DNA of 64,000 nt, from positions 2,216-66,215 of the forward strand of contig SVPB01000001.1 of assembly GCA_015066065.1 (NCBI GenBank). Direction: 5' to 3'. The position numbers were made by a program, and so were the translations under genes. A model generated the notes under the pieces. It was given only the letters and a program-made list of their open reading frames with translations. It did no database searches and was not told where the DNA came from. This stretch comes from Oscillospiraceae bacterium. GTDB lineage: Bacteria > Bacillota > Clostridia > Oscillospirales > Acutalibacteraceae. Shown here one piece after another: positions 2,759-36,618 of this stretch (position 1 is its first letter; every line of letters starts with the position of its first letter).

Positions 2759-3178
2759 ATGACACAGGAGCAGATGGCTCGGTTGCTGACAGAGAGGGGG
2801 GTACGCCCCACACAGCAGCGTTTAGCTGTATACGACTATCTGCTGCAGCATCGGACGCACCCTTCTGCCGAAGCGGTGTACAAAGCATTGGTTGTGCATC
2901 ATCCCACCTTCTCGCGTACCACGGTGTACAACTCACTGCACGCACTGGTCAAAGCCGGCTTGGTGCAGGAGTTATCCTTGGGAACAGAGGAGAAGCATTA
3001 CGACGGAGATGCCTCTCTGCATGGTCACTTCTATTGTTGCGGCTGTAGTCAGATCTATGATTTTCCTCTGCAAGAGGAAGCGATTAACGCTCTGCAACCC
3101 GATGGGTTTAAGGTTTATGGCAGAGCGATTCACTTCAGCGGATTTTGTTCCGCCTGCGGCAAGGCCGCATCCACTTAG
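2759..3178 (+). CDS. perR: Fur-family peroxide-responsive repressor (PerR-like)
   Basis: Fur-family winged helix (RPTQQRLAVYDYL), HGH and two CxxC pairs. Adjacent to rubrerythrin and preceded by Per boxes. Confidence 0.8.
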   Translation: MTQEQMARLLTERGVRPTQQRLAVYDYLLQHRTHPSAEAVYKALVVHHPTFSRTTVYNSLHALVKAGLVQELSLGTEEKHYDGDASLHGHFYCCGCSQIYDFPLQEEAINALQPDGFKVYGRAIHFSGFCSACGKAAST

Positions 3179-3231
3179 TCGGTAATACCCTTGATCATAT
3201 TAATTAACTAATGAATTTGGAGGAAAGAATT

Positions 3232-3774
3232 ATGAAAAAGTTTGTTTGCAGTGTTTGCGGTTATGTCCACACCGGTGATGAGGCTCCGGAGTCCTGCCCC
3301 GTTTGTAAGGTTGGTAAGGAGAAGTTTAACGAGCAGGTAGGGGAGCGCTCCTGGGCGGCTGAGCACGTGGTTGGCGTTGCTAAGGGTGTGGATCCCGAGA
3401 TCATCGAGGGCCTGCGTGCCAACTTTGAGGGTGAGTGCTCCGAGGTGGGCATGTATCTCGCCATGGCCCGTGTAGCCCATCGCGAGGGCTACCCCGAGAT
3501 CGGCCTGTATTGGGAGAAGGCCGCTTATGAGGAGGCAGAGCACGCCGCTAAGTTTGCGGAGCTGCTGGGTGAGGTCGTGACCGACAGCACCAAGAAGAAT
3601 CTGGAGATGCGTGTGGATGCCGAAAACGGCGCCACCGCTGGTAAGTTTGAGTTGGCTAAGCGTGCTAAGGAGCTGGGTCTGGATGCCATCCACGATACGG
3701 TCCACGAGATGGCCCGCGACGAAGCGAGACACGGCAAGGCATTTGAGGGCCTGCTGGCACGGTACTTTAAGTGA
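3232..3774 (+). CDS. rbr: Reverse rubrerythrin (N-terminal rubredoxin-like Cys4 plus diiron ferritin-like domain)
   Basis: ATG 3232 follows GGAGGAAA. CSVCGY...CPVCKV precedes the ExxH diiron helices ([18 protein letters not shown]). Confidence 0.9.
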
Positions 3775-3780
3775 TGCGTG

Positions 3781-3808
3781 AAAGGGGGCCGGTACCGGCC
3801 CCCTTTTT
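3781..3808 (+). terminator. Intrinsic terminator after rbr
   Basis: GGGGGCCGG / CCGGCCCCC stem followed by TTTTT. Confidence 0.8.
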
Positions 3809-3859
3809 GCCACTATGGTTCGGGTTAGCCGTGTCACCTTATGATCGGAGGAATGAACG

Positions 3860-4255
3860 ATGAAAAAGGTTTGGTCTTTAGCTTTGGTTTTTCTATTGCT
3901 CATTGCTCTTTCTGCTTGTGGTCAAGCGACGGCTGACCCTGCGGCAGTGCCGGCACCATCTGATAACGACGTCCCTGCGTCCACCGAGGTGCCCACCACC
4001 ACTACGACGGTGACACCCCCCACCACGGGTACGCCGACCGTCCACACCATCAGCCGTGACCGGGCGGTTGCGATCGCTTTGCAAGCGGCCGGTTTGACTC
4101 AAGAGCAGGTGTTCGACCTGGATGCGGAGCTGGATTGGGAACGCAAGATGATATATTGGGAGGTAGACTTCGAGACCCGGGAGTACGAGTACTCCTACTA
4201 TATCAACGCCGATAACGGTACCGTCGTGCGTTCGGACAAGGAGCCTAATGATTAA
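3860..4255 (+). CDS. PepSY-domain lipoprotein
   Basis: Signal peptide with lipobox LSAC, Thr/Pro-rich linker, PepSY-like C-terminal domain (ISRDRAVAIAL...YYINADNGTVV). Confidence 0.75.
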   Translation: MKKVWSLALVFLLLIALSACGQATADPAAVPAPSDNDVPASTEVPTTTTTVTPPTTGTPTVHTISRDRAVAIALQAAGLTQEQVFDLDAELDWERKMIYWEVDFETREYEYSYYINADNGTVVRSDKEPND

Positions 4256-4267
4256 ACGTAAATGAAA

Positions 4268-4298
4268 GAAGCCGCCGGTTTGCCCGGCGGCTTCTTTT
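4268..4298 (+). terminator. Intrinsic terminator
   Basis: GAAGCCGCCGG / CCGGCGGCTTC 11-bp stem plus TTTT. Confidence 0.8.
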
Positions 4299-4354
4299 CG
4301 TCGGTAGGTCTTTTGACGAGCATCATCGCATATGGTATAAGGGAGGTGAAGGCG

Positions 4355-4651
4355 ATGATTGCTCGCATTACGGACATGCACGATAAAGAGGTCATCAACA
4401 TAAGTGACGGTATGCGCTTGGGCTTTGTGGACGACGTAGAGGTGGATACCTGTACGGCTCAGGTGGTGGCTATCGTTATATTTGGTAAAGGGAAATGCTT
4501 CGGCCTTTTTGGCCGTGACAAGGACATCGTTATCAGCTGGAAGCAGATCGAGGTCATAGGGGAGGAGACGATACTGGTGAACTTTGATCACGGTGGCTGT
4601 TGTTGCCCCACCAAGAAAGGTCCGCAGATCCTCGGCGGTCTTTTTAGGTAA
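4355..4651 (+). CDS. ymxH: YlmC/YmxH-family PRC-barrel sporulation protein
   Basis: ATG 4355 follows GGGAGG. MIARITDMHDKEVINISDGMRLGFVDDVEVD matches the YlmC/YmxH pattern. Confidence 0.8.
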   Translation: MIARITDMHDKEVINISDGMRLGFVDDVEVDTCTAQVVAIVIFGKGKCFGLFGRDKDIVISWKQIEVIGEETILVNFDHGGCCCPTKKGPQILGGLFR

Positions 4652-4680
4652 AAAAGTTTGCAAAAAATGCAAAAAAGTTC

Positions 4681-4709
4681 TTGCTTTTTTATTGTATAAG
4701 TGGTATACT
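4681..4709 (+). promoter_or_regulatory. Sigma-A promoter of rpsB-tsf
   Basis: TTGCTT, 17-nt spacer, TGgTATACT (extended -10). Confidence 0.6.
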
Positions 4710-4820
4710 GTTACGGCAAAACGCACGCGAGAGCCAACATAGGCGACCGGTGCCGCATCCGGATGTACCGGACGGTGGCCGTCTGTGCTCGCGGAGGTAA
4801 AACCAAGGAGGAATTTTATT

Positions 4821-5564
4821 ATGGCAGTTATCTCTATGAAACAGTTGCTGGAAGCCGGTGTCCACTTCGGTCACCAGACCCGCCGCTGGAACCCCAAGAT
4901 GGCCCCCTACATCTTCACCGAGCGCAATGGTATCTATATCATTGACCTCCAGAAGACCGTCCGTAAGCTGGAGGAGGCGTACATGTTCGTGCGCGATCTG
5001 TCCGCTGAGGGCAAGGAGGTACTGTTTGTCGGCACCAAGAAGCAGGCGCAGGACTCCATCCGTGAGGAAGCCGTCCGTGCCGGCGCTCACTTTGTCAACG
5101 CTCGTTGGCTGGGTGGTATGCTGACCAACTTCCGCACCATCCGTGGTCGTATTGCCCGTCTGAACCAGCTCAAGGCGATGGAGTCTGACGGCACCTTCGA
5201 TCTGCTTCCCAAGAAGGAAGTGGTCAAGCTCAACCACGAGATCGAGAAGCTGGAGAAGTTCCTGGGCGGCATCAAGGAGATGAAGGCTCTGCCCGGCGCT
5301 CTGTTCATTGTTGATCCCCGTAAGGAGAAGATCGCGGTTGCTGAAGCTAAGAAGCTGGGCATCCCGGTGGTTGCCATCGTGGATACCAACTGCGATCCCG
5401 ACGATGTGGATTATGTTATCCCCGGTAACGACGACGCTATCCGCGCCGTGAAGCTGATCGCTTCCTGTATGGCCGATGCTATCATCGAGGGTCACCAGGG
5501 CGAGCAGGGCGAGGCCGCCGCTGAGGAGGCTCCCGCCGAGGCGGAGGAAGCCGCTGCGGAATAA
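4821..5564 (+). CDS. rpsB: 30S ribosomal protein S2
   Basis: [37 protein letters not shown] upstream. Confidence 0.97.
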
Positions 5565-5600
5565 TCCCGATCATCAATACTTGACAGGAGGAACAATATC

Positions 5601-6524
5601 ATGGCTTTTACCAGTAAAGATGTTATGGCGCTGCGTGAGAAGACCGGCGTTGGTATGATGGATTGCAAGAAGGCTCTGCAGGAGTCCGACGGCGATATGG
5701 AGAAGGCGATCGACTACCTGCGCGAGAAGGGTCTGGCCAAGCAGGCCAAGAAGGCTTCCCGTGTGGCTGCCGAGGGTATGGCTTACGCCGTAGCCGATAT
5801 CGACAAGAAGGTCGGTGTGGTCGTGGAGGTCAACTCCGAGACCGACTTTGCCGCTAAGAGCGACAAGTTTATCGAGTTTGTACAGCAGGTTGCCCAGGTT
5901 ATCATGGACAAGGCTCCTGCCGACGTGGATGCCCTGATGGCTTGTGACGCCGGCAACGGCCAGACGCTGGCTGACGTGCTGCGTGACAAGGTCATGGTCA
6001 TCGGTGAGAACCTGAGTGTACGCCGTTTTGTCCGCTACGAGGGCGATTGCGTTGCCTACGTGCACGGCGGTGGCCGTATCGGTGTTCTGGTTAAGTTCGA
6101 CGCAGATGCCGCTGCTTCCGGCTCCGACGCTCTGGTGGAGTGCGGTAAGGACGTGGCCATGCAGATTGCGGCTCTTAACGCTCCTTACCTGAACGAGGCT
6201 TCTGTGCCTGCCGATGTGGTGGCTCACGAGAAGGAAGTGCAGCTCGCTCTGATGAAGAACGATCCCAAGAACGCCAACAAGCCGGAGAACATTCTGGAGA
6301 AGATGATCACCGGTAAGATGCGCAAGTACTTCGAGGAAGTTTGCCTCGTTAACCAGGCTTTCGTGAAGGACGGTAACCTGACCGTTGGTCAGTACGTGGA
6401 GCAGCAGGCTAAGGCCGCCGGCGGCGCTATGACTCTGGCTTCCTTCGTCCGCTACGAGAAGGGCGAGGGCCTGCAGAAGCGCGAGGATGACTTCGCCAGC
6501 GAAGTTGCCTCCATGATGAAATAA
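5601..6524 (+). CDS. tsf: Elongation factor Ts
   Basis: UBA-like N-terminus (VMALREKTGVGMMDCKKAL) and EF-Ts dimerisation domains. Follows rpsB. Confidence 0.97.
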   Translation: MAFTSKDVMALREKTGVGMMDCKKALQESDGDMEKAIDYLREKGLAKQAKKASRVAAEGMAYAVADIDKKVGVVVEVNSETDFAAKSDKFIEFVQQVAQVIMDKAPADVDALMACDAGNGQTLADVLRDKVMVIGENLSVRRFVRYEGDCVAYVHGGGRIGVLVKFDADAAASGSDALVECGKDVAMQIAALNAPYLNEASVPADVVAHEKEVQLALMKNDPKNANKPENILEKMITGKMRKYFEEVCLVNQAFVKDGNLTVGQYVEQQAKAAGGAMTLASFVRYEKGEGLQKREDDFASEVASMMK

Positions 6525-6539
6525 GCTTCTAACATCGCA

Positions 6540-6577
6540 AAAACGCCGAAAGCAATCTTGCTTTCGGCGTTTTTTTG
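6540..6577 (+). terminator. Intrinsic terminator after tsf
   Basis: ACGCCGAAAGCA / TGCTTTCGGCGT 12-bp stem plus T7. Confidence 0.85.
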
Positions 6578-6583
6578 TAAAAT

Positions 6584-6615
6584 AAAAGGGCATCACCCAC
6601 GGGTGATGCCCTTTT
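6584..6615 (-). terminator. Terminator of the minus-strand beta-helix gene
   Basis: GGGCATCACCC / GGGTGATGCCC stem flanked by A4/T4 runs, 3 nt past the stop codon. Confidence 0.7.
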
Positions 6616-6618
6616 AGC

Positions 6619-8364
6619 TTATTGGACGGTGATATCCTCGCACGCCTCCGTCACGGGTGCGATGGACTGGGTAAAGTTGCCGATCCATTCGTTATCCTTT
6701 ATGGTGGTGGCGGTGCAGTTTTTGAGACGAATATACCCCTCAGCGGCGTGCCACCGTTCTGCCGACGGACTGCGGAAGATCCGGTTATCGGTAAACCGCA
6801 GGTCGGTGGTGGCATAGGCATACAGCGCCGGAGTATCCGCCACGTCAAAGGTGTTGTGATGGATGCGCACGTGCTTGTGATAAGGCTTAGCGTTATCGGG
6901 CTGAGGCACGATGGGGCAAAGACTGATGACTCCTTCGCAGAACTGGTAGTCGGAGGTCAGACACGCATCGGTAAACACGTTGTTACGGATCTCCACGTCG
7001 TTACATTCGCCGGACTCGAACCAGTAGTTGGAGTCGCCGGCTACCAGGATAGCGGAGCCGGAGGACTCAAAGTAGTTATCGGCGATAAGCACCGGCTTGG
7101 GGGTGGACACCAGGATGCCACGGGCACGGCAGCTGCCAAAGCGGTTTTTGGTGCATACAAAGGCGGCGGTGTTGGTCAGATTATCCAGCGCCAGAGCGTC
7201 CCCCTTCTTCGCCAGCTCCAGCACCTCGTCGGGCAGGGGAGCCGTAAACGAAAGGCGGAAGGTGTCGATCTGCTCCAGATCGTATTCCGCCACCGTGGCG
7301 GTGTGGATGCGATGCATGCTGCCCCGTTCAATGAAAGCGATCTCGTCACCGGGCTTCGCCCAGTACCGGAATCCCATAGCCTGCTTGTGACGGTACTTAC
7401 ACCGCAGCTCCGTGCTGTTGACCACCTCGTCCGAGGTGACACAGCAGCCGTGTACGTTGATGGGATCATCCATCAGCCCCAGGAAGGTGGACTCGGTGAT
7501 GGTTACGGTGCCGGAGTTACAGGTGATGTGCATACCGTCATCCCGTCCGTTGGTGACCAACCGCCCGGCCGCACGGTCGGGGACGAAGTGCATCCCTCGG
7601 AAGGTCAGGTTATGACAGAACTGTGCCAGACATCCCAATCCACCGCAGGAGTGTACCGTGATGTTTTCAAAGGTAAGGTCACGGCATCGCTCGGAGAAGA
7701 TGCCGGCGTGCCGGCGGTAGTTATGCCGCAATACCAGGATATCGCCTACCGCCAACGGAAAGTCCTTACTGCGCTCCATCCGATAGATGTTGTTGCCCAA
7801 CTCTTTGGTGGCCATGGGGAAGAAGCAGTCGCCGGTGGCACGACGCACCTTGCGTGAATGCGGCTCGTAGATGATGATGGCCGGGCAGATGGGATACCAC
7901 TCGTCTGCCCCGATATCAAATTCCAGCTTTCCGTCGGTGAGACGGTGGGGGAATGCCGTTGGGTCGATGTACATATCCACATATGTGTCGGAGAAACCGG
8001 TGACAATTCCCTCGGCTACCATGGGCTTCTTCCAATTAATCGTAAAGTTCTCCACCTTTACATCAGAACAGCTATCCAGCGTAAAGGGCTGCATGTGCCC
8101 TTCAAACCATAGGCGAGCGCCATTACCCAGCAGGGCGCAGTTTTCCATCTCCTTAAGCCACAGGCCCAGGGTGCGCACCGGATAGACGTCCGAGTTAGAG
8201 ATGCGATAGTCCACCTGCATCTCCGGATGGGGTTTGAAAAAGTAGTCGGCGTTTTCAAATACAAACGTGGTGTCTTTTTTGTGTTCTTTCATCAGCGCAG
8301 CTAATGAGAGGGTAATATCGGCACCGGGGACAATGCCCACTTCCTTGAGACGGATCGTATTCAT
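6619..8364 (-). CDS. Right-handed parallel beta-helix repeat protein (putative cytoplasmic glycosidase/lyase)
   Basis: ATG at 8364 follows GGAGA. The 581-aa product has no signal peptide. Reiterated about 22-25-aa segments fit the PbH1 pattern (CHNLTFRGMHF, NSGTVTITESTF, DVEIRNNVF, HVRIHHNTF, DLRFTDNRIF). Confidence 0.65.
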   Translation of the reverse strand: MNTIRLKEVGIVPGADITLSLAALMKEHKKDTTFVFENADYFFKPHPEMQVDYRISNSDVYPVRTLGLWLKEMENCALLGNGARLWFEGHMQPFTLDSCSDVKVENFTINWKKPMVAEGIVTGFSDTYVDMYIDPTAFPHRLTDGKLEFDIGADEWYPICPAIIIYEPHSRKVRRATGDCFFPMATKELGNNIYRMERSKDFPLAVGDILVLRHNYRRHAGIFSERCRDLTFENITVHSCGGLGCLAQFCHNLTFRGMHFVPDRAAGRLVTNGRDDGMHITCNSGTVTITESTFLGLMDDPINVHGCCVTSDEVVNSTELRCKYRHKQAMGFRYWAKPGDEIAFIERGSMHRIHTATVAEYDLEQIDTFRLSFTAPLPDEVLELAKKGDALALDNLTNTAAFVCTKNRFGSCRARGILVSTPKPVLIADNYFESSGSAILVAGDSNYWFESGECNDVEIRNNVFTDACLTSDYQFCEGVISLCPIVPQPDNAKPYHKHVRIHHNTFDVADTPALYAYATTDLRFTDNRIFRSPSAERWHAAEGYIRLKNCTATTIKDNEWIGNFTQSIAPVTEACEDITVQ

Positions 8365-8534
8365 AGGATATCTCCTTCCACAACAGTTACGATCATTATA
8401 CCATTGATTGCTTATATTGGCAATCAAAAACTTCACAAAATTTTCCTTAAAATCTTCATGGAACATCTTTACAGATACGTAGAATTTTTGTATAATAGAT
8501 GAGAAATAATTCGGTGAAAGGATGTTGGCTCATT

Positions 8535-9239
8535 ATGCAACCTAAGTACAAGCGCATTCTTCTCAAGCTCAGCGGCGAGGCTATGGCCGGCCCTGCTCAT
8601 ACCGGCCTTGATTTTGATACGGTTCTTCACATCTGTCAATATGTTAAGGAGGCCGCCTCTTTAGGCACCGAGATCGCCATCGTGGTGGGCGGCGGCAACT
8701 TCTGGCGTGGCCGTTCCAGCGGTAAGATGGACCGCACCCGTGCGGATCACATGGGCATGCTGGCTACCACCATCAATGCTCTCGGCCTGGCGGATGCGCT
8801 GGAGCAGCTGGGCTGCGAGGTGCGTGTACAGACCGCTATCGCCATGAATGAGATTGCCGAGCCCTATATCCGCAACCGGGCGGTGCGACATCTCGAGAAG
8901 GGCCGCATCGTGATTTTTGGCTGTGGTACCGGTAATCCCTTCTTCTCTACCGACACGGCCGCTGCACTGCGTGCCGCTGAGATTGAAGCGGACGTTATCT
9001 TTAAGGCGAGTATGGTGGATGGCATCTATGATAGCGATCCTCATAAGAATCCGGATGCCAAGAAGTTTGATCACCTGACCTACATGGATGTGCTTAACAA
9101 GGATCTTAAGGTCATGGATTCCACTGCGGCTACCTTGTGCAAGGATAACGGCATTTCATTATTGGTCTTTAACCTGGAAGACCCCGAAAATATCGTGCGT
9201 GCCGTGAAGGGCGAAGCCATCGGCACCGTGGTTGACTAA
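8535..9239 (+). CDS. pyrH: UMP kinase
   Basis: [13 protein letters not shown] and GGGNFWRG motifs. Confidence 0.96.
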
Positions 9240-9259
9240 TCGACGTAAGGAGAATGGAT

Positions 9260-9814
9260 ATGAATACGATTTTTGCTACTGCTGAAGAGAAGATGAACAA
9301 GAGCCTCAACAATCTGGTCTCCGAGTTTGCTTCCATCCGCGCCGGCCGAGCCAATCCCGGTGTGCTGGATAAGCTGTCGGTGGATTACTATGGCAGCCCC
9401 ACTCCCATCAATCAGGTGGCGGCGGTGTCGGTGCCGGATCCTCGCACCTTGATGATCGCTCCGTGGGACAAGAGCGTGCTCAAGGAGATCGAGAAGGCCA
9501 TTCTCACCTCCGACATCGGCATTAATCCCCAGAACGATGGCACCTCCCTGCGTCTGATTTTCCCCCCGATGACCGAGGAGCGCCGCAAGGAGCTGACCAA
9601 GGATATCGCTAAGATGGGCGAGGATTGTAAGGTGGCTATCCGGTCCATCCGCCGGGATGCCATCGACAAGATCAAGGACATGAAGAAGAAATCCGAGATC
9701 ACCGAGGACGATCAGAAGAACGGCGAAAAGAAAATGCAGGATCTGACCGACCGCTTCGCCAAGGAGGCCGACAAGCTGACCGAGGCCAAGCAGAAAGAGA
9801 TCATGGAGATCTGA
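9260..9814 (+). CDS. frr: Ribosome recycling factor
   Basis: ATG 9260 lies 7 nt after AAGGAG (9254 is an alternative). Full-length RRF pattern. Confidence 0.95.
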   Translation: MNTIFATAEEKMNKSLNNLVSEFASIRAGRANPGVLDKLSVDYYGSPTPINQVAAVSVPDPRTLMIAPWDKSVLKEIEKAILTSDIGINPQNDGTSLRLIFPPMTEERRKELTKDIAKMGEDCKVAIRSIRRDAIDKIKDMKKKSEITEDDQKNGEKKMQDLTDRFAKEADKLTEAKQKEIMEI

Positions 9815-30008: not shown

Positions 30009-31070
30009 ATGGAGATACAAACAGAAGAACAACGGCAGGAATACGCGCGGCGGCGAGCTAGACGTCGTCGGATGTACCGTGTCCGCCAACGGTCCATTGA
30101 ACTTGCCGTTTTACTGGGGATTGTGGCCGGTGTGGTGGTGCCTATATGGCTCTTTTCCGGCAACACCGTTGCGCCGTCATCTGGCCCAGCTCCGTTGGCT
30201 TCGACAGCGGCGCCTACTCCTGCACCGGTCTATCCGGCGGTGACGGCGGATACGTACACGCTTACCGATGAGGTGGATGCCAATCACGCCATATTGGTGG
30301 ATGTGACCGATCATACGGTGGTGGCCTCCAAGTCACCCGATACGGTTTGCTTTCCGGCCTCGGTGTCAAAGGTTATGACCCTCTTGGTAGCGGTGGAAAA
30401 TATCACGGATTTTACCGACACCTTCACCATGACCTACCATATCACCAACCCTTTGCATGAGGCAGAAGCCACGGTAGCCGGTTTTATTTCCGGGGAAGTC
30501 ATCGTTCTGGAGGATCTGCTGTACGGAGTCATTTTGCCCTCTGGCGCAGACGCTTGTCAGGCGTTGGCGGTGTATGTGTCCGGCAGTGAAGAAGCCTTTG
30601 TGCAGAAGATGAACGATCGGGCTAAGCAGATGGGGCTTAAGAATACGCATTTTGCCAACACCAGCGGCCTGCACGATCCTCAGCACTATACCACTTGTGA
30701 GGATATGGTCATCATCTTGAATGAGGCTATGAAGAACCCCCATTGCCGGCAGGTGCTCTCCACCTACCAGTATACCACCGCGGCGACAACACAGCACCCG
30801 GAAGGTCTTTTGCTGACTAGTACCATGTTCAGCCGTATGCGTGGCGATGAACCGGACGGCGCTCTCGTGATTGCCGGTAAAACGGGCTACACCAGCCAGG
30901 CCAGACACACCATGGTAAGCTACGCGCAAGGGGAGAACGGACACGATTACATATTAGTGACCATGGACGGCTCCAATCGTTGGAAGGCGACCTACGACGC
31001 TATTGATACGTACACGATGTTCTGCTCTTCAGCCGGAACGACCGGCACAGCATCGACGACCACACCATAA
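30009..31070 (+). CDS. D-alanyl-D-alanine carboxypeptidase (S11 family)
   Basis: N-terminal TM anchor, SxxK (SVSKVMT) and KTG (AGKTGYT) motifs. Confidence 0.85.
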   Translation: MEIQTEEQRQEYARRRARRRRMYRVRQRSIELAVLLGIVAGVVVPIWLFSGNTVAPSSGPAPLASTAAPTPAPVYPAVTADTYTLTDEVDANHAILVDVTDHTVVASKSPDTVCFPASVSKVMTLLVAVENITDFTDTFTMTYHITNPLHEAEATVAGFISGEVIVLEDLLYGVILPSGADACQALAVYVSGSEEAFVQKMNDRAKQMGLKNTHFANTSGLHDPQHYTTCEDMVIILNEAMKNPHCRQVLSTYQYTTAATTQHPEGLLLTSTMFSRMRGDEPDGALVIAGKTGYTSQARHTMVSYAQGENGHDYILVTMDGSNRWKATYDAIDTYTMFCSSAGTTGTASTTTP

Positions 31071-31111
31071 AAAACGACGAAGGCGATCACGGTCACCTTC
31101 GTCATTTTTTT
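31070..31111. terminator. Bidirectional terminator
   Basis: GACGAAGG / CCTTCGTC stem flanked by A5 and T7 runs, between convergent genes. Confidence 0.7.
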
Positions 31112-31490
31112 ACAACACGTTATGCAACAGAGGTTTTTCTTCTTCCTGTATGATTTGCAGCTGCAGCCGGAGAAGCTGTATCCCTTGATGCGTTTTGTCG
31201 GTATCACCGTATTTCGCTGCCAGTAACAGGGAGGATGCCGTCTCACGGGCCTCCTCCAGCCCACTGTGGTTCATAAAGCAAGGGAAAAGCCGTGTCTGTT
31301 TTTCATAATCATCTACAAATACTTCGATCTCATTTTTAAGGTTTTCTGCGGTTTCTTCGGCCAAATGATGTTCAATATCATTCAACCGGACGATTAACCG
31401 ATCGATCTGCCGGTGCTGATAGACGACAGATCCCCAGCATAGCACCAGTATGCTTATCAGCAGTCCCCCGGCTATCCATAGTCGTTTCAA
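31110..31490 (-). CDS. DUF4363-like small membrane-anchored protein
   Basis: N-terminal TM plus helical domain. The usual downstream partner of DUF421 genes in Clostridia; overlaps it by 4 nt. Confidence 0.65.
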   Translation of the reverse strand: MKRLWIAGGLLISILVLCWGSVVYQHRQIDRLIVRLNDIEHHLAEETAENLKNEIEVFVDDYEKQTRLFPCFMNHSGLEEARETASSLLLAAKYGDTDKTHQGIQLLRLQLQIIQEEEKPLLHNVL

Positions 31491-32191
31491 TGTTTCCCCT
31501 CCGATGCCGTCACATCCTTGTTTTTAAGCAGGAAGAAATCACCGGTTTTGGTGGCGGTCATGATAAATACGTCTTCAATGGTACAGTGCATTTTTTGCAG
31601 GGTTTTGGCAAGCCATTTTTCATCAAGATCGCACATTTGCAGTCCCCACGGCATACATTTTCCGTCGCTGATGACCACCATTGGCAGCCCGTCATCCTTG
31701 ACCTTGACGCCCATGTCCTCTAGCGTGATCGTTTGATACGGCGGATGACAGAAAGCGCTGATGTGCCCATTCGTTTCAACGATGGCATATTGCACATGCC
31801 GTATATCAAACACGTTTTCCTGCCGCAATGCCTCTGCCAGATCGTCCACCGTCATACGCAGCCGGCGCATGGCGGCTTTGTCAATACGTCCATCCTTGAT
31901 GACAGCAATGGGGGAACCGGCAACCGCTTTGGAGACGACGGGAAACTTGAGCATGAGCCCGGACAGGATGATTTCCAAGGATACCAGCACCAGTATAGGA
32001 ATGATACCATTAAACAGAGGTAACCCGTTGTCCTGCATAGGGACAGCCGCCAGATCCGAAAGAAGCATGGTCACCGCCAGCTCGGATGGCTGTAATTCTC
32101 CCAACTGCCGTTTACCCATCAACCGCATGGCTATCATAAGAAGGATGTACAATATGATCGTTCGAATGGCCGCTATTGCCATGGGCTTCAC
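31487..32191 (-). CDS. DUF421 (YetF-like) membrane protein
   Basis: 3 N-terminal TM helices, the GKRQLGELQPSELAVTMLLSD motif and a YetF C-terminal domain. Confidence 0.8.
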   Translation of the reverse strand: MKPMAIAAIRTIILYILLMIAMRLMGKRQLGELQPSELAVTMLLSDLAAVPMQDNGLPLFNGIIPILVLVSLEIILSGLMLKFPVVSKAVAGSPIAVIKDGRIDKAAMRRLRMTVDDLAEALRQENVFDIRHVQYAIVETNGHISAFCHPPYQTITLEDMGVKVKDDGLPMVVISDGKCMPWGLQMCDLDEKWLAKTLQKMHCTIEDVFIMTATKTGDFFLLKNKDVTASEGKH

Positions 32192-32274
32192 CTCTTTATT
32201 ATATATGGCTAGTGTATCCGGAAGAACGCCGATTATAACCGCAGAGAATTTCTGAAATTTTTTTCAATTTAGAC

Positions 32275-32303
32275 TTGACTTTTCGATATATAGGCTGTAT
32301 AAT
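32275..32303 (+). promoter_or_regulatory. Promoter of tRNA-Arg
   Basis: TTGACT, 17-nt spacer, TATAAT. Lies 25 nt upstream of the mature tRNA 5' end. Confidence 0.7.
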
Positions 32304-32328
32304 CTAATGCGTTGCCGATGCGGCACAT

Positions 32329-32405
32329 GCGCTCGTAGCTCAGTTGGATAGAGTGTTTGACTACGAATCAAAAGGTCAGGGGTTCGAATCCCTTCGGGCG
32401 CGCCA
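32329..32405 (+). tRNA. tRNA-Arg (anticodon ACG), CCA encoded
   Basis: Hand-folded 77-nt cloverleaf. Acceptor GCGCTCG/CGGGCGC, D arm GCTC..GAGT, anticodon arm TTTGA-CTACGAA-TCAAA, T arm AGGGG-TTCGAAT-CCCTT, G73, CCA. Confidence 0.95.
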
Positions 32406-32462
32406 AGCAAAGCACCACCTACGGGTGGTGCTTTTGTTTTTGCCCGAGGGATTCGAACCCTG
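32388..32462 (+). repeat. att-like direct repeat, copy 1
   Basis: Consists of the tRNA 3' 18 nt, a terminator hairpin and an inverted T-arm-like 20-mer. Repeated at 32570-32643 with a single T-run length difference. Confidence 0.9.
32409..32441. terminator. Terminator hairpin after tRNA-Arg
   Basis: AAAGCACCACC / GGTGGTGCTTT 11-bp stem, TACG loop, TTTGTTTTT tail. Confidence 0.8.
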
Positions 32463-32482
32463 AGAGGGTGAGCGCCGTAAAG

Positions 32483-32506
32483 AAAACAGTCCGGTGGACT
32501 GTTTTT
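32483..32506. terminator. Second terminator-like hairpin in the inter-repeat spacer
   Basis: AAAACAGTCC / GGACTGTTTT stem with flanking A and T runs. Confidence 0.55.
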
Positions 32507-32569
32507 AGGTGCGAAGTCCGCCGCGGCTGCGCCGCAAGGACGCAAGTCACCGGCAGAGCCGGTGACTGT

Positions 32570-32643
32570 ATCCCTTCGGGCGCGCCAAGCAAAGCACCAC
32601 CTACGGGTGGTGCTTTTGTTTTGCCCGAGGGATTCGAACCCTG
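32570..32643 (+). repeat. att-like direct repeat, copy 2 (no tRNA body attached)
   Basis: 74 nt matching 32388-32462. Confidence 0.9.
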
Positions 32644-33559
32644 TGCAAAAGCAAGGTTGTCGCCGGAACTGAATGATCTGCTAAAGGTAGCGTATGATTG
32701 TCGAAAAGGGCCGATTGTTAAAAGACATTACAAAAATTGAAATAGCCACCAAGGGTGACTACGGATCAAATACGCTAAATGCGAAGTCCGTATCCCAAGG
32801 TGGCTTTTCCAGCACCAATGTATCACAAAATACAAGCGGTGTCAATCCCCAGTCTATGCAAACCGAGGGAGAAAATACACAGCATGCGGTGGTAGATCCT
32901 GCCGGGAGGCGCCGGGGTGCTGCCGTTAAGAACAACGCACCCACGTCACCGGACGATCGAATGGATGTGTGGCACAAGCTCCAAAACGAAATCATTTTAG
33001 GTGGGGCGCTGTATACGGTTACCTTTAACAACGACGTAAAAGAAAACGGACGCACGGTCAACCATACGGCCATAGAAGGCCTCCGGCTTGCTTACCGTGC
33101 ATCCGATGGCAAGAGAGTATCACAAAAAAGATCTCTTGTCAATACCCAGTCTATGCAAACCGAGGGAGAAAATACACAGCATGCGGTGGTAGATCCTGCC
33201 GGGAGGCGCCAGGGTGCTGCCGTTAAGAACAACGCACCCACGTCACCGGACGATCGAATGGGTGTGTGGCACAAGCTCCAAAACGAAATCATTTTAGGTA
33301 GGGCGCTGTATACGGTTGCCTTTAACATCGACGTAAAAGAAAACGGACGCACGGTCAGCCATACGGCCATAGAAGGCCTCCGGCGTGCTTACCGTGCATC
33401 CGATGGCAAGAGAATATCACAAAATAGATCTCTTGTCAATACCTAGTCTATGCAAACCGAGGGAGAAAATACACAGCATGCGGTGGCTATGATGTTTTTG
33501 GTAAAGCCGACGGCGAGAACCGCATCATAATTGTTCGCAGACAGTGCATTTATAAATAA
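32644..33559 (+). pseudogene. Unit V: 5'-truncated modular ORF remnant
   Basis: Frame 0 is open 32691-33443 and starts mid-module (GRLLKDITKIEIA). It carries the 99-aa tandem repeat and an in-frame TAG at 33444. Coding continues in another frame as GGYDVFGKADGENRIIIVRRQCIYK, with TAA at 33557. Confidence 0.5.
32820..33486 (+). repeat. 297-bp tandem repeat, about 2.25 copies
   Basis: Unit starts at 32820, 33117 and 33414. The two full copies differ at 9 of 297 positions. The period equals 99 codons in the open frame. Confidence 0.92.
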
Positions 33560-33566
33560 AACAAAA

Positions 33567-34215
33567 ATGGTAGAGGATTCCGCACTCCACCAATGCGTTG
33601 AACCTTGGCGAAACGTCTAAAAACGAAAGCGCAGTATCCTCTACCGACACCAATGTATCACAAAACACAAGTGGCGTCAATACCCGTTCTATGCAAGCGG
33701 TGCAAGGCGGCTACGACGTCTTTGGCAAGCTGATGACGTGTTCCGCAAGGATATCGCTGAGGATATCTATTTTCCCAAAGATCCGGAACTGGCGGAAGGC
33801 TTCAAGCGGTATATGGCCAACAAAACAAAGGACTTGCAAAATGGCCAAAGAAAGAATATACTTTTATATGTAGGGATGAACGCTTATTTCGTTGAGGCGG
33901 ATGGATATTTGACCGGCAACATCACCAAGGTGATGCCTGTTTTGGGGAATGAGCGACCGCTTCCGATGCTGAAGGAGGAATTTGAAAGTGTCACAGAAGG
34001 AAGAATTGACGGAAGTCGGGAAAATGTTGATGAAATGGCTGGTGACTTGGGGGTTCGAGTTCGACGAAGTGGTGTGCGTGTACACGGCGCTGGAGACGGA
34101 TCAGGAGAAGGTGGACTTGATGTACTATATGGCAGATCACCGGGAGTCGACCAAGTCGGACGTGATTGGGGAGATTATACGGATGAAGCGGGCGGTGGAC
34201 AAGACCTGGAAATAA
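33567..34215 (+). pseudogene. Unit W: frame-switching modular ORF
   Basis: ATGGTAGAGGA start at 33567, where frame 0 stops after 17 codons. Coding-like sequence runs in frame 1 (33574-33732, NVSQNTSGVN..SMQAVQGGYDVFGKL), then frame 0 (33732-33987, DDVFRKDIAEDIYFPKDPELAEGFKRY...), then frame 1 (33988-34215), ending TAA. Confidence 0.45.
33988..34215 (+). CDS. Candidate free-standing 75-aa ORF (hypothetical, helical)
   Basis: GTG 33988 lies 8 nt after GAAGGAGGA. VSQKEELTEVGKMLMKWLVTWGFEFDEVVCVYTALETDQEKVDLMYYMADHRESTKSDVIGEIIRMKRAVDKTWK has normal protein composition, whereas the overlapping frame-0 read-through is a G/R/V-rich out-of-frame type. Confidence 0.35.
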   Translation: MSQKEELTEVGKMLMKWLVTWGFEFDEVVCVYTALETDQEKVDLMYYMADHRESTKSDVIGEIIRMKRAVDKTWK

Positions 34216-34259
34216 TCGACGATTATATCCAGTTGCCAGACGGAACGATCACCAACGCC

Positions 34260-34412
34260 CCCATGGTGGAGGAACAATTATATTCACAACAGAACGATGA
34301 TGAGGATAGCTCGTCTCAGCCAGCGGCTGAGCCGGGCTTTTGTGATGCCCAAAAATGCGGTGGTGGATCCTGCCTGGATGCGTGGCAGCACCTCCGTTGA
34401 TCGCTTTGGCAA
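34260..34412 (+). repeat. Dispersed direct repeat, copy X (153 nt)
   Basis: Matches 35773-35924 with 5 substitutions plus one extra A in an A-run (34351-34355). Confidence 0.9.
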
Positions 34413-35746
34413 TCCCGTCGAATCCGCCCCTTTGCAGTCAAATGCAGCCGAGGGAAGCGTTGTAGACCTTTCGGAGAATAACGAGTTGTCACAGCGCGTG
34501 GATGGGGTGTTTGGAGCCGAAAAGTATAAAAGGGTCCGTGATTATATTTTAGGTTCCTTGGGCGATCAACCGTTTAGATTAAGCGACGGAACTGTGGCAG
34601 TGGTGGATCGAAGTGATGCGTTACATATTGCGAATAAGTCTGGAACGGAAAAACAGCGCAAATATCACAAATAAAACGAATCGTTAAGATGGCGACATTG
34701 TATGCGGTTGATCAGAATGCCAGCCATAACAAATTTGATAGCTTTCGTTACTATTTTGCGGATGTTCGCTACAGAGGCGAAGAGTACCCACTATTCTTGA
34801 ATGTTGGGCACGGGAAGGCTGATGGGCAATATCATCTTTATGATATTACCAAAAAAATAAGAGACACCGCCGACCGAATTAACGGTCTGGAGCGCCCCAA
34901 ACCAAACGAGGGCTACGCTCTAGAAAACGATGTCTCTAATGTTAGTATACCCAATGTTGACCAAATTGTCAAGGCAAAAGCTCCCAATGCCGATGGGGGG
35001 AACCATCTACGGTTTCATTCGCAGTATATCACAAAAGCGGGGGAACGTCAACGGAAGTGGTGATGGAAGTGCTGTTACAAAAAACGAAACCGACGGAGGT
35101 TTTCAGACCCAAGGGCAACTCGTTGTGCCAATGAGTGAAACGACCGACGGTTCCGCTGATATTATAGCGCAAAACAAAGGAGCTGTCAACACAGAGCGAG
35201 ATGGACAAAATGTTGACAGATACACCGCAAAACAGTATAATGACTTCGGTTGGGTGGCGGTAAATAACGTCTTGACCGGCAAGGAGCTCAAAAAGTTATA
35301 TAGCCAATTTGCCAAGGTGAAAGTCAATAAAGAGTACAGCTTTAAGAACAAATTGGGTGAGTATTTAATTCCTGTTGGTGATAAGTATGGTAGCATTGAC
35401 AAAATCGTCTACATCAAGGGGACTAAAAAACACCCGATTATCCGTCAAGTGGTCGTATTAAATAAAACACATCTCGAAAATGCCGAAAAGCACATTATGG
35501 AGGTTGTGAAGTATGAGGCAACAGGACTCTACTACGATGCGTTTGAAATTCATATGGCTTATGCAGGAGAAGGAATATTCAGTTTACACAAGGCTCTCTC
35601 TTTCCCTTCATATAGCGAACTTAAAAACGAGAGAGCAAGGGGACGAGATGGTCAAGGAACTCATGACAATGGTAGAGAAGGGGACGCCGGAGGCCGAGTT
35701 TCGGAAATTCGCTCAGGAGAAGTACGGAGTGACAATGGTAGGGTAA
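34263..35746 (+). pseudogene. Unit X: 493-codon ORF interrupted only at four homopolymer runs
   Basis: Modules: acidic leader, a nuclease-like module and an NFGW module. Segments run frame 0 (34263-34355), frame 1 (to 34653), frame 0 (to 35000), frame 1 (to 35627) and frame 2 (to TAA 35746). Switch points are A5, A5, G6 and A5. 1484 nt -1+1-1-1 = 1482 = 494 codons. Confidence 0.6.
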
Positions 35747-35772
35747 GCTCTCCTGATATCGTTGCCAACGAT

Positions 35773-35924
35773 CCCATGGTGGAGGAACAATTTTATTCAC
35801 AACAGAACGATGATGAGGATAGCTCGTCTCAGCCAGCGGCTGAGCCGGGCTTTTCTGATGCCCAAAATGCGGTGGTGGATCCTGCCTGGATGCGTGGCAA
35901 CACCTCTGCTGATCGCTTTGGCAA
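35773..35924 (+). repeat. Dispersed direct repeat, copy Y (152 nt)
   Basis: See 34260-34412. Here the A-run is A4 and the frame is intact. Confidence 0.9.
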
Positions 35925-35949
35925 AAACTCTTCCACGATTGATAAATAG
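35776..35949 (+). CDS. Unit Y: 57-aa stub duplicating the first ~50 codons of unit X
   Basis: MVEEQFYSQQNDDEDSSSQPAAEPGFSDAQNAVVDPAWMRGNTSADRFGKNSSTIDK. No convincing RBS, so it may be a non-functional remnant. Confidence 0.3.
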   Translation: MVEEQFYSQQNDDEDSSSQPAAEPGFSDAQNAVVDPAWMRGNTSADRFGKNSSTIDK

Positions 35950-35982
35950 AGGGAAGGCGCCAGCAATTGGCGCCTTCCCTCT
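35948..35982. terminator. Perfect 15-bp-stem hairpin at the right edge of the islet
   Basis: AGAGGGAAGGCGCCA / TGGCGCCTTCCCTCT with loop GCAAT. Lies between unit Y and the convergent DUF378 gene. Confidence 0.65.
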
Positions 35983-36004
35983 GCTCTTTTGCGTATGATT
36001 TTCG

Positions 36005-36202
36005 TCAATCGGCCTTTGCTCTGTCCTTAAATAACAGGGTAATGCACCACAGTCCGGCGAGAGCGACCACGGTATACACAATGCGAGCCAGCAAGGTGCC
36101 GGCGCCGCCAAAGATCCAGGCGACGATGTCGAATTGGAACAGGCCGATGCTGCCCCAGTTCAAGGCACCGATGATGGTGATAATGAGAGCCAGTTTGTTC
36201 AT
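36005..36202 (-). CDS. DUF378 small membrane protein
   Basis: MNKLALIITIIGALNWGSIGLFQFDIVAWIFGG matches the DUF378 pattern. ATG 36202 follows AGGAG. Confidence 0.8.
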   Translation of the reverse strand: MNKLALIITIIGALNWGSIGLFQFDIVAWIFGGAGTLLARIVYTVVALAGLWCITLLFKDRAKAD

Positions 36203-36348
36203 GAACGAGTAACTCCTTTCTCTTTGATGACTTGTGCTCACATTCAGTATGTATCAATTACAGAAAAATATTCGAAAAAAAGCGAAAACATCTTTTCATA
36301 TACGAAAATGTGTGTTAAAATGTTAAAAAAGAAAAAGGAGATAACGCT

Positions 36349-36618
36349 ATGAGAGCAGTTATTACGGTTGTTGGTAAAGATGCCGTTGGTATTTTAACTA
36401 AAGTATCCGGCGTGTGCAGTGATCATCACATCAATGTGGTGGAGGTCACCCAGTCCATTCTGCAGGATATGTTTGCGATGATCATGTTGGTGGAGATCGA
36501 CGGATGCGATATCCCATTTACAGCCTTGGTGGACGAGCTGGACGCTTTGGGCAAAGAAAATCATCTCGTTATACATTGCATGCACGAGGATATTTTTAAC
36601 GCTATGCATACGATTTGA
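36349..36618 (+). CDS. ACT-domain protein (UPF0237 family)
   Basis: [21 protein letters not shown] fits the ACT fold. 89 aa, the conserved partner of UPF0210. Confidence 0.85.

Follow-up and report, generated by a model that had tools for sequence, protein, structure and literature searches.

Polyvalent proteins, which are carried by phages and conjugative elements and whose domains are represented in Pfam by LPD1-LPD39 and ART-PolyVal, were described by Iyer, Burroughs, Anand, de Souza and Aravind (2017, J Bacteriol 199:e00245-17). They join two to fifteen domains in an uninterrupted polypeptide, and their genes lie beside virion genes in phages or prophages, or beside type IV secretion system genes in conjugative elements. 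An intact polyvalent gene encodes a chain of 2,000-4,000 amino acids (aa) composed of unrelated effector domains, and mosaicism through duplication and rearrangement is a described property of these proteins (PMC5512222). The same authors proposed that the chain is delivered into a new host along with the invading DNA, and predicted that a metallopeptidase within the chain processes it into separate units directed against host defences (PMC5512222). Such a zincin-like (HExxH) domain is frequent in polyvalent proteins, though not universal. Here we analyse an islet at positions 32388-35982 of a 64,000-nucleotide (nt) stretch of an Oscillospiraceae bacterium genome (contig SVPB01000001.1, assembly GCA_015066065.1; hereafter the window), which begins at the 3' end of a tRNA-Arg gene. 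Based on homology, frame breaks, a missing promoter and recombinase, and foreign composition, we consider this islet, with a probability of roughly 80%, to be the dead remnant of a polyvalent-protein gene from a mobile element. This element was most probably a prophage, with an integrative and conjugative element (ICE) or an integrative and mobilizable element (IME) as the less likely alternative. Integration at the tRNA gene and the order of later events are reconstructed conditionally below.

The islet comprises four consecutive units, V, W, X and Y, with one domain of interest in unit W (W1) and two in unit X (X1 and X2). Like polyvalent proteins, it strings together unrelated domains of 80-190 aa on one strand. 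X1 groups with LPD3, X2 and W1 are found in proteins of 2,000-4,100 aa, some of which also carry LPD38, LPD1, LPD3 or ART-PolyVal, and the first half of an inter-domain linker is shared with a phage polyvalent open reading frame (ORF). Unlike intact polyvalent proteins, however, the islet has no single long ORF and no metallopeptidase, methylase-helicase, ParB or other hallmark enzymatic domain, and it resides in a chromosomal core context with no phage or conjugation genes around it.

Two further kinds of described system can be compared with this locus. Highly decayed remnants of integrated elements, some of them at the 3' ends of tRNA genes, occur in Faecalibacterium, as do polyvalent proteins in ICEs (PMC12084326). 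The islet resembles such decayed Oscillospiraceae elements, which are 'remnants' of the cis-mobilizable element (CIME)-like type, in that it lies beside a tRNA with a duplicated 3' segment, lacks integrase and transfer genes, has a foreign composition and holds a type of cargo found on ICEs and prophages. It differs from them in that its repeats, which are similar to attachment (att) sites, do not flank it but lie 107 nt apart on the tRNA side, and in that it represents part of one gene, so that assignment to a prophage or an ICE is not certain. The orphan C-terminal cassettes of polymorphic toxins (CdiA, Rhs and LXG toxins, and the MuF-toxins of temperate phages) provide a second parallel, because the islet likewise contains tandem modules in which a conserved junction is followed by a variable downstream part and, in some instances, by a small ORF. 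Unlike these cassettes, the islet is accompanied by no parent toxin gene, secretion or trafficking domain, or recognised toxin or immunity family. Moreover, those of its junctions that have outside homologs are polyvalent linkers, and its breaks fall inside domains.

Polyvalent-protein homologs of the islet modules

When the frame-repaired modules were searched against Pfam, PHROGs, NCBIfam and PADLOC, nothing significant was matched directly, and X1 yielded one marginal PHROG match, to a giant-protein profile of 2,118 positions (E=0.002). No Pfam model matches X2, W1, V, the 161-nt junction repeat or the linker, and blastn and tblastn searches against plasmids and phages returned tRNA matches only, or none. 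Profile searches became informative by way of homologs, which lead to LPD3 and to giant polyvalent proteins. X1 (34453-35027, + strand) has 45 homologs, the best of which (P0017) is 67% identical over 95% of X1. This protein scores 38.9 bits on the Pfam model LPD3 ('large polyvalent protein-associated domain 3'), for which the cut-off is 27, and two additional homologs (P0153 and P0171) pass as well. A sequence search of the PDB with X1 gave no match.

Evidence for the second domain of unit X is more extensive. The X2 core (35212-35640) matches 382 representative clusters at E<=1e-3 in an exhaustive search, and many of these matches are internal to proteins of 2,000-4,100 aa. For example, residues 406-591 of a 2,316-aa protein (P0062) are 67% identical to X2. 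In P0153, an X1-like domain is followed by an X2-like domain, which is the order found in the window. The AlphaFold2 model of X2 has a predicted local distance difference test (pLDDT) score of 92, and a Foldseek search with this model gave no PDB or BFVD match at E<1e-3. X2 is an undescribed polyvalent-associated domain. W1 (33729-34001) matches residues 217-329 of P0171 (E ~2e-16), residues 2446-2488 of P0064, and P0086.

Two viral contigs from IMG/VR (L061 and L062), derived from metagenome 3300031555, which is also the source of this organism's longest contig, place these domains in phage genes. The first carries a 2,429-aa ORF with LPD38, LPD1, ART-PolyVal and an X2-like domain, adjoining a major-head-like gene. 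The second carries a 2,489-aa ORF with LPD3 (55.7 bits), a W1-like segment at 8470-8670 and the linker peptide KIRDTADRINGLERPKPNEGYALTNGIS. The corresponding linker DNA of the islet, which encodes the first half of the conserved polyvalent linker (KIRDTADRINGLERPKPNEGYALENDVSN; 34848-34949, +), is 88% identical to positions 8992-9093 of L062 over 102 nt, and 92.6% identical over 81 nt to positions 2855-2935 of another contig (L038). In homologs the linker runs on as ...[IV]xQNxxxVNTxSMQxG, and the junctions [IV]SQ[NK]..VN and SMQ of the islet therefore represent the second half of a conserved inter-domain linker. These junction peptides, and a third, AVVDPA, occur 5-6, 4 and 4 times, respectively, in the islet translations, which confirms the recurrence reported in the earlier note, and they are also repeated as DNA, with TATCACAAAA encoding [IV]SQ[NK] and GCGGTGGTNGATCCTGCC encoding AVVDPA.

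The resemblance to polyvalent proteins, which the earlier note had drawn from one module of X, thus extends to X1, X2, W1 and part of the junction peptides, and its statement that the islet matches no named system gives way to a placement of the modules with polyvalent proteins. The comparison also exposes gaps in protein-family coverage, including X2, for which a confident fold has no known structural relative, W1 and the conserved linker. We observed that the linker DTADRINGLERPKPNEGYAL is far better conserved than the domains adjacent to it, with 88-93% nucleotide identity even between hosts of different G+C content. It may act in recombination, as a handle, or in processing by a protease, and it would be a candidate processing site for the peptidase of polyvalent proteins. 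A metallopeptidase motif, HExxH, is present by eye in relatives (P0062, P0171, L062 and L064); no HExxH metallopeptidase module was found in the islet translations, and no Pfam match to one was obtained in the islet. Two X2-bearing giants, P0062 and P0064 (2316 and 3765 aa), match no Pfam family at E<=0.001, although motifs resembling those of HExxH peptidases and of ParB can be recognised in them by eye. Large parts of such polyvalent proteins are uncharted.

The junctions also invite a different interpretation, in which the islet is a working cassette reservoir in the style of orphan polymorphic-toxin genes. Modules would be swapped via the junctions into a full-length polyvalent or toxin gene, and the small ORFs would be immunity-like. 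Such a role would accord with junctions that are 88-93% identical in nucleotide sequence to those of unrelated contigs, with the occurrence of the same linker peptide after many unrelated or truncated domains in metagenome ORFs, with the existence of similar small arrays at several chromosomal loci, and with a 75-codon ORF after W1 that has an AAGGAGG element upstream of a GTG start and lies in the frame favoured by the codon statistic. However, the 64-kb window contains no full-length recipient gene, the searches of Pfam, NCBIfam, PHROGs and PADLOC matched no toxin, immunity or defence family, and the small ORFs have no homologs. Truncations and frame breaks occur inside domains (e.g. X1 at ~34640) and not at junctions alone, relics in other genomes carry different, independent breaks, and downstream of X2 it is the linker frame that homologs identify as ancestral, rather than the alternative frame. 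We therefore consider a working reservoir improbable, and the array of orphan C-terminal toxin cassettes that the earlier note had offered as an alternative is not borne out: the window holds no parent toxin gene, and the junctions that might have preceded toxin domains are internal polyvalent linkers wherever they have outside homologs, leaving AVVDPA and the 161-nt junction without an outside match. Its description of the islet as conflict-type cargo is likewise overstated for what remains, which is a promoter-less, frame-broken relic.

A more general proposal, to which we assign a similarly small probability, is that integrase-less one-strand module arrays bounded by the linker DTADRINGLERPKPNEGYAL...[IV]xQN..VN..SMQ are a maintained reservoir rather than debris. 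If this were true, the linker would serve as a recombination handle or processing signal through which phages and ICEs gain or shed modules, or the host would keep the arrays as decoys. The recurrence of arrays in Clostridia, two of them beside partly duplicated tRNAs, would then reflect a mechanism and not independent decay. The islet is most likely an ordinary mobile-element scar and not a new system, and as a system it carries little weight, since both the type of mobile-element gene from which this relic derives and the type of site that it occupies are already known.

Two candidate signals encountered in these comparisons were set aside. A degenerate scan of viral contigs for VNTQSMQ produced one match, which lies in a capsid-like gene and is attributed to chance. 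The alternative-frame peptide that follows X2 matches a protein (P0065) and was rejected as a real domain, because the DNA of the locus that encodes this protein (L064) reveals that P0065 is itself a frame-shifted relic, whose linker frame runs on into an ART-type module.

Broken reading frames and expression signals

The reading frame of the array is interrupted at least six times. A single continuous multi-domain polypeptide is absent, given that the array changes frame at least four times, contains internal stops as well as a nonsense codon, and has a longest ORF of 339 codons. Across 31068-36481 no frame is open for 350 codons or more, which is the longest such gap in the window. The claim of the earlier note that the islet lacks an intact long ORF holds only loosely, in this sense, as ORFs of 250, 220 and 339 codons do exist.

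With a frame map of codon usage, for which 29 core ORFs of the window provided the training set, the whole islet scores as coding-like, all signal lies on one strand, and the + strand frames follow the succession f0, f1, f0, f1, f0, f1, f0, f1. This is the same succession of one-strand, frame-switching units that had been read by eye, with the reservation that one switch, within W at ~33975, may not be real. Doubt arises because W1 and X2 are followed by G/R/D-rich linkers in intact proteins, and the 220-codon f0 ORF reads through a sequence of this kind after W1.

The individual breaks can be followed along the + strand. Unit V (32691-33443), in frame 0, consists of a degenerate linker and two 297-nt (99-codon) tandem repeats, and is annotated as the 250-aa hypothetical protein MBE6777789. 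From the sequence and its translations, a broken third V copy (33444-33556) begins with TAG at 33444, where its sister copies have CAG, and is joined out of frame at the microhomology GCGGTGG (~33480) to a GGYDVFGK... stub that ends in TAA. Unit W (33610-34001) begins with the second-half linker NVSQNTSGVNTRSMQ in frame 1, changes frame near 33725 and proceeds into W1 in frame 0, which is continued by a G/R/D-rich, linker-like segment (34002-34251) within the 220-codon ORF 33738-34400. The W-to-X1 frame is broken in the first copy of the 161-nt junction repeat (34252-34412; PMVEEQLYSQQNDDEDSSSQPAAEPGF.DAQNAVVDPAWMRG..DRFG), which carries A5 at ~34351 compared with A4 in the second copy and thereby changes the spacing of the copies from 1513 to 1512. 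X1 is itself split at ~34640 into a frame 1 half (34453-34662) and a frame 0 half (34650-35027) by a run of A5 where A6 is needed, and intact homologs read through this point as ...KSGTEKAAQIAKIKEL.... The X1-to-X2 joint (35022-35211) is out of frame at the linker repeat TATCACAAAA, where frame 0 passes to frame 1, and continues as linker-like sequence (ISQKRGNVN ... IAQNKGAVN). X2 and its G/R/D-rich linker (35212-35764) are followed by unit Y (35765-35949), which comprises the second copy of the 161-nt repeat (35765-35924; 95% identical to the first), a further 23 nt and a TAG stop.

Signals for expression of the array are also lacking. The + strand shows no promoter-like site from 32303 to 33834, and the array is preceded by both copies of the tRNA terminator. 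Taken as a whole, the islet holds more promoter-like sites than expected (14 compared with 5.6 +/- 2.2), and such enrichment is usual in foreign DNA that is richer in A+T. Two perfect 12/12 sigma-70 sites (TTGACA-17-TATAAT) are arranged back to back in the linker before X2, at 35161-35189 on the - strand and at 35213-35241 on the + strand.

The absence of a mobility gene, which the earlier note had reported for the islet, extends to its surroundings. No recombinase or transposase is called on an identical contig (L030) that extends ~6 kb beyond the left end of the islet and ~10 kb beyond its right end, and Pfam detects no integrase in the islet. Lack of an integrase fits a highly decayed remnant, and is not proof of one.

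In an NCBI metagenome-assembled genome (MAG) of 'Ruminococcaceae/Oscillospiraceae bacterium', the islet ORFs are listed as the hypothetical proteins MBE6777789-93 (E7541_00180-00200), and these five calls can be explained as pieces of a pseudogene. Polyvalent fragments may mislead gene callers because their purine-rich linkers leave alternative frames open and coding-like. The 75-codon ORF mentioned above (33988-34215, frame 1) is annotated by gene callers as a 75-aa protein. No homologs were found for this or the other small ORFs, and a scan of viral contigs with the 75-aa ORF was empty. We noted that two alternative-frame ORFs, this one and 35513-35746, overlap purine-rich linkers and have a host codon score above that of the linker frame. 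Comparison with intact homologs and with L064 suggests that both are by-products of purine-rich composition.

The same observations bear on the possibility that the array represents one or two live genes, read by means of programmed ribosomal frameshifting, transcriptional slippage or phase variation at A runs. Two of the frame breaks do fall in A5 runs (~34351 and ~34640), the coding-like signal is confined to one strand, and the sequence is identical across all assemblies. However, a run of A5 is short for either slippage or phase variation, as slippage is usually productive in runs of 8 or more. Likewise, the heptamer G GAA AAA C is not a slippery sequence of the X XXY YYZ type, slippage would not repair the nonsense codon or the out-of-frame deletion joints, units W and X have neither a start codon nor a promoter, and the array sits behind two terminators. 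A homologous relic in another genome (L037) is broken elsewhere, by insertion of a T. On this evidence, live genes are a highly improbable explanation.

That the mosaic and its frameshifts might be an artefact of assembly or sequencing, such as a chimeric MAG contig or collapsed repeats, is hardly credible: although some contigs break within repeats (L033 starts at window position 32912 and L035 at 34262) and a 151-aa, single-repeat variant of the V ORF occurs on contigs of 0.8-1.5 kb, six contigs of up to 295 kb, which come from different JGI and ENA samples, are 100% identical to 31401-36400 where they overlap and span both flanks, and the same ORFs are present in the NCBI MAG. These six are among 23 metagenome contigs with exact matches to the neighbouring ACT-domain protein, and their identity demonstrates that the frame breaks are reproducible and not assembly errors. 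In the short variants (P0003-P0005, contigs of 766-1548 nt), the single repeat unit is a mosaic of copies 1 and 2, which may reflect assembly collapse or true copy-number variation through unequal crossing-over.

The tRNA-Arg gene and the origin of the islet

An intact tRNA-Arg(ACG) gene (32329-32405, +) was identified by ARAGORN and by Rfam (67.6 bits). It is the sole tRNA that ARAGORN finds in the 64-kb window, and the Rfam search returned nothing besides it. A promoter-like TTGACT-17-TATAAT sequence at 32275-32303 belongs to this gene. The duplication of its 3' end, which had been noticed by eye, is real: a repeat search aligns 32388-32462 with 32570-32643 on the + strand, the copies (75 and 74 nt) differing by one T indel and lying at a spacing of 182 nt. 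Each contains the exact 18-nt 3' end of the tRNA followed by 57 nt of downstream sequence, which includes the terminator hairpin (32409-32434 in copy 1, 32591-32616 in copy 2) and a further 28 nt, with an inverted T-arm-like fragment (32442-32462 and 32623-32643, respectively). Copy 2 looks like an att site. The copies are separated by a hairpin-rich spacer of 107 nt (32463-32569), evident on direct reading of the sequence, which together with copy 1 forms a 182-nt unit. No homolog of the spacer was found, and it is possibly the scar of an earlier integration or deletion.

The reverse complement of the 21-nt piece that follows each terminator copy, CAGGGTTCGAATCCCTCGGGC, resembles the T-arm and acceptor of a tRNA on the minus strand. 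These pieces may be what is left of a convergent tRNA or of an additional att site; the window contains no tRNA on the minus strand.

At the other end of the islet, the perfect hairpin with a 15-bp stem that had been described there was recovered by the repeat search at 35948-35982 (arms 35948-35962 and 35968-35982). It constitutes a two-way terminator that the islet shares with DUF378, a convergent gene ending in a stop codon at 36005-36007, and marks the right boundary. A 14-nt direct repeat at 32690 and 35991 was considered as a target-site duplication and rejected, as by our estimate 4 kb of sequence would contain about one such pair by chance, and short repeat families of two copies are often fortuitous.

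The base composition of the islet is distinct from that of its surroundings. Its G+C content is 47.6%, compared with a window mean of 53.8% (standard deviation 2.1% for 3.3-kb windows), which ranks it 5 of 304, and the three local counts made by hand in the earlier note (24/60 and 22/60 within the islet, 39/60 outside) are reproduced exactly. No sequence related to the islet modules occurs elsewhere in the 64-kb window. The neighbours are core genes (DUF421, DUF4363, PBP, DUF378, ACT and DUF711), with no virion or type IV secretion system genes among them.

Comparison with relatives places the islet at a break in gene order. In five relatives whose DUF711 protein is ~90% identical (L056-L060), the DUF378-ACT-DUF711 block is kept, ackA or PFOR converges on DUF378, and there is neither a tRNA nor an islet. 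On the other side, scans of genome and metagenome contigs for DUF421 found only relatives of <=62% identity, and an exact look-up of the DUF421 product and of the 78-aa DUF378 product returned no record. The closest DUF421 relative (L001, 62% identity) has tRNA-Arg(ACG) and a terminator beside DUF421, followed by unrelated genes, and the islet is absent. The left edge of the block, at DUF378 (36005-36241), is a synteny breakpoint at which the neighbour is ackA, PFOR or, in this organism, tRNA-Arg and DUF421. At the available resolution, the islet appears to be lineage-specific and to lie at this breakpoint. Horizontal acquisition, as the earlier note had proposed, is supported because the islet has a lower G+C content, is absent from the relatives examined and adjoins a synteny breakpoint beside a duplicated tRNA end.

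A plausible history can be outlined for the remnant of a polyvalent gene. An element would once have integrated at or beside tRNA-Arg, and the duplicated 75-nt tRNA-end segment would be the leftover of its att sites. A deletion may then have removed most of the element and left ~3.3 kb from the interior of a giant polyvalent gene. Recombination between repeated linkers (TATCACAAAA, GCGGTGGTNGATCCTGCC and the microhomology GCGGTGG) could account for the internal deletions and for the duplications, namely the 297-nt tandem repeat and the repeated 161-nt junction, and later point decay, including the CAG to TAG change and the one-base differences in A runs, would have completed the process. The resulting relic is presumed to be functionless now.

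Several observations count against this explanation or parts of it. Both tRNA-end copies lie on the tRNA side of the islet, 107 nt apart, whereas its far end is unmarked and a third copy is absent, and the att-site interpretation is therefore indirect. All contigs of the organism are identical and an empty site in the same species was not found, such that neither polymorphism nor the time of acquisition can be demonstrated. X1 itself falls under the Pfam threshold for LPD3, and its membership follows by transitivity. No homolog of unit V, AVVDPA or the 161-nt junction was found outside this organism, including in viral-contig scans with V and the 161-nt junction, and our searches for a parent yielded no full-length element and no gene more than 85% identical in nucleotide sequence, a level reached by the linker alone. 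Finally, ORFs of 220-339 codons persist with a coding-like codon statistic, which indicates that decay is recent or that some pieces may still be translated.

Fragments at other loci and repeats within unit V

Comparable decayed fragments are present at other chromosomal sites of related Clostridia. Where homologs of the modules reside on longer contigs, the setting is that of a core chromosome and the homologs are mostly fragmentary, and small chromosomal islets that derive from polyvalent genes are thus a recurrent feature of this group. The closest parallel is the relic on contig L037 (8763-9116; MAG GCA_054278575.1), an LPD3-type module with an independent +1 T frameshift that lies ~110 nt from a 90-nt duplication. 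The duplicated segment, at a spacing of 207 nt, corresponds to the 5' half of tRNA-Pro(TGG) and upstream sequence. Its geometry parallels that of the window, with a tRNA, a repeat, ~110 nt, a second repeat and a relic that reads away from them. The L037 repeat represents the 5' end of a tRNA, and integrases that target tRNA genes do not normally leave 5'-end duplications.

Other fragments differ in extent. Between rpmG-secE-nusG and aroA (L036), an intact solo ORF of 290 aa contains a truncated module and ends shortly after the next module has begun. At L064, flanked by a cupin-family gene and htpG, there are a metallopeptidase fragment, X2, an ART-type module and a frame break.

The 297-nt tandem repeats of unit V (32820-33116 and 33117-33413; 95% identical, and followed by an incomplete third copy that reaches 33486) each consist of SMQ..AVVDPA, a short domain fragment and a VSQ[KN]..VN linker. 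Its full copies (32850-33443) differ at 9 of 297 nt, and all nine differences are nonsynonymous (none synonymous; P ~0.09 for this outcome under neutrality). An A occurs in copy 1 at five of these positions, in copy 2 at three and in neither at one. Mutagenesis of the kind caused by diversity-generating retroelements was considered for these repeats and rejected, because a reverse transcriptase is absent and the A differences run in both directions.

Downstream of pcrA on contig L038, a linker fragment and one module are followed by tail-fibre-like, holin-like and amidase genes. In this region (2811-9633) the module ends in the same linker, and the subsequent genes include tail-fibre-like ORFs, two holin-sized ORFs and an Amidase_3 gene, an arrangement that looks like a prophage remnant. 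The 'protein' tails that extend past the linkers of L038 are translated G+C-rich hairpin repeats (GGGACGGCAAGCCCGTCCC).

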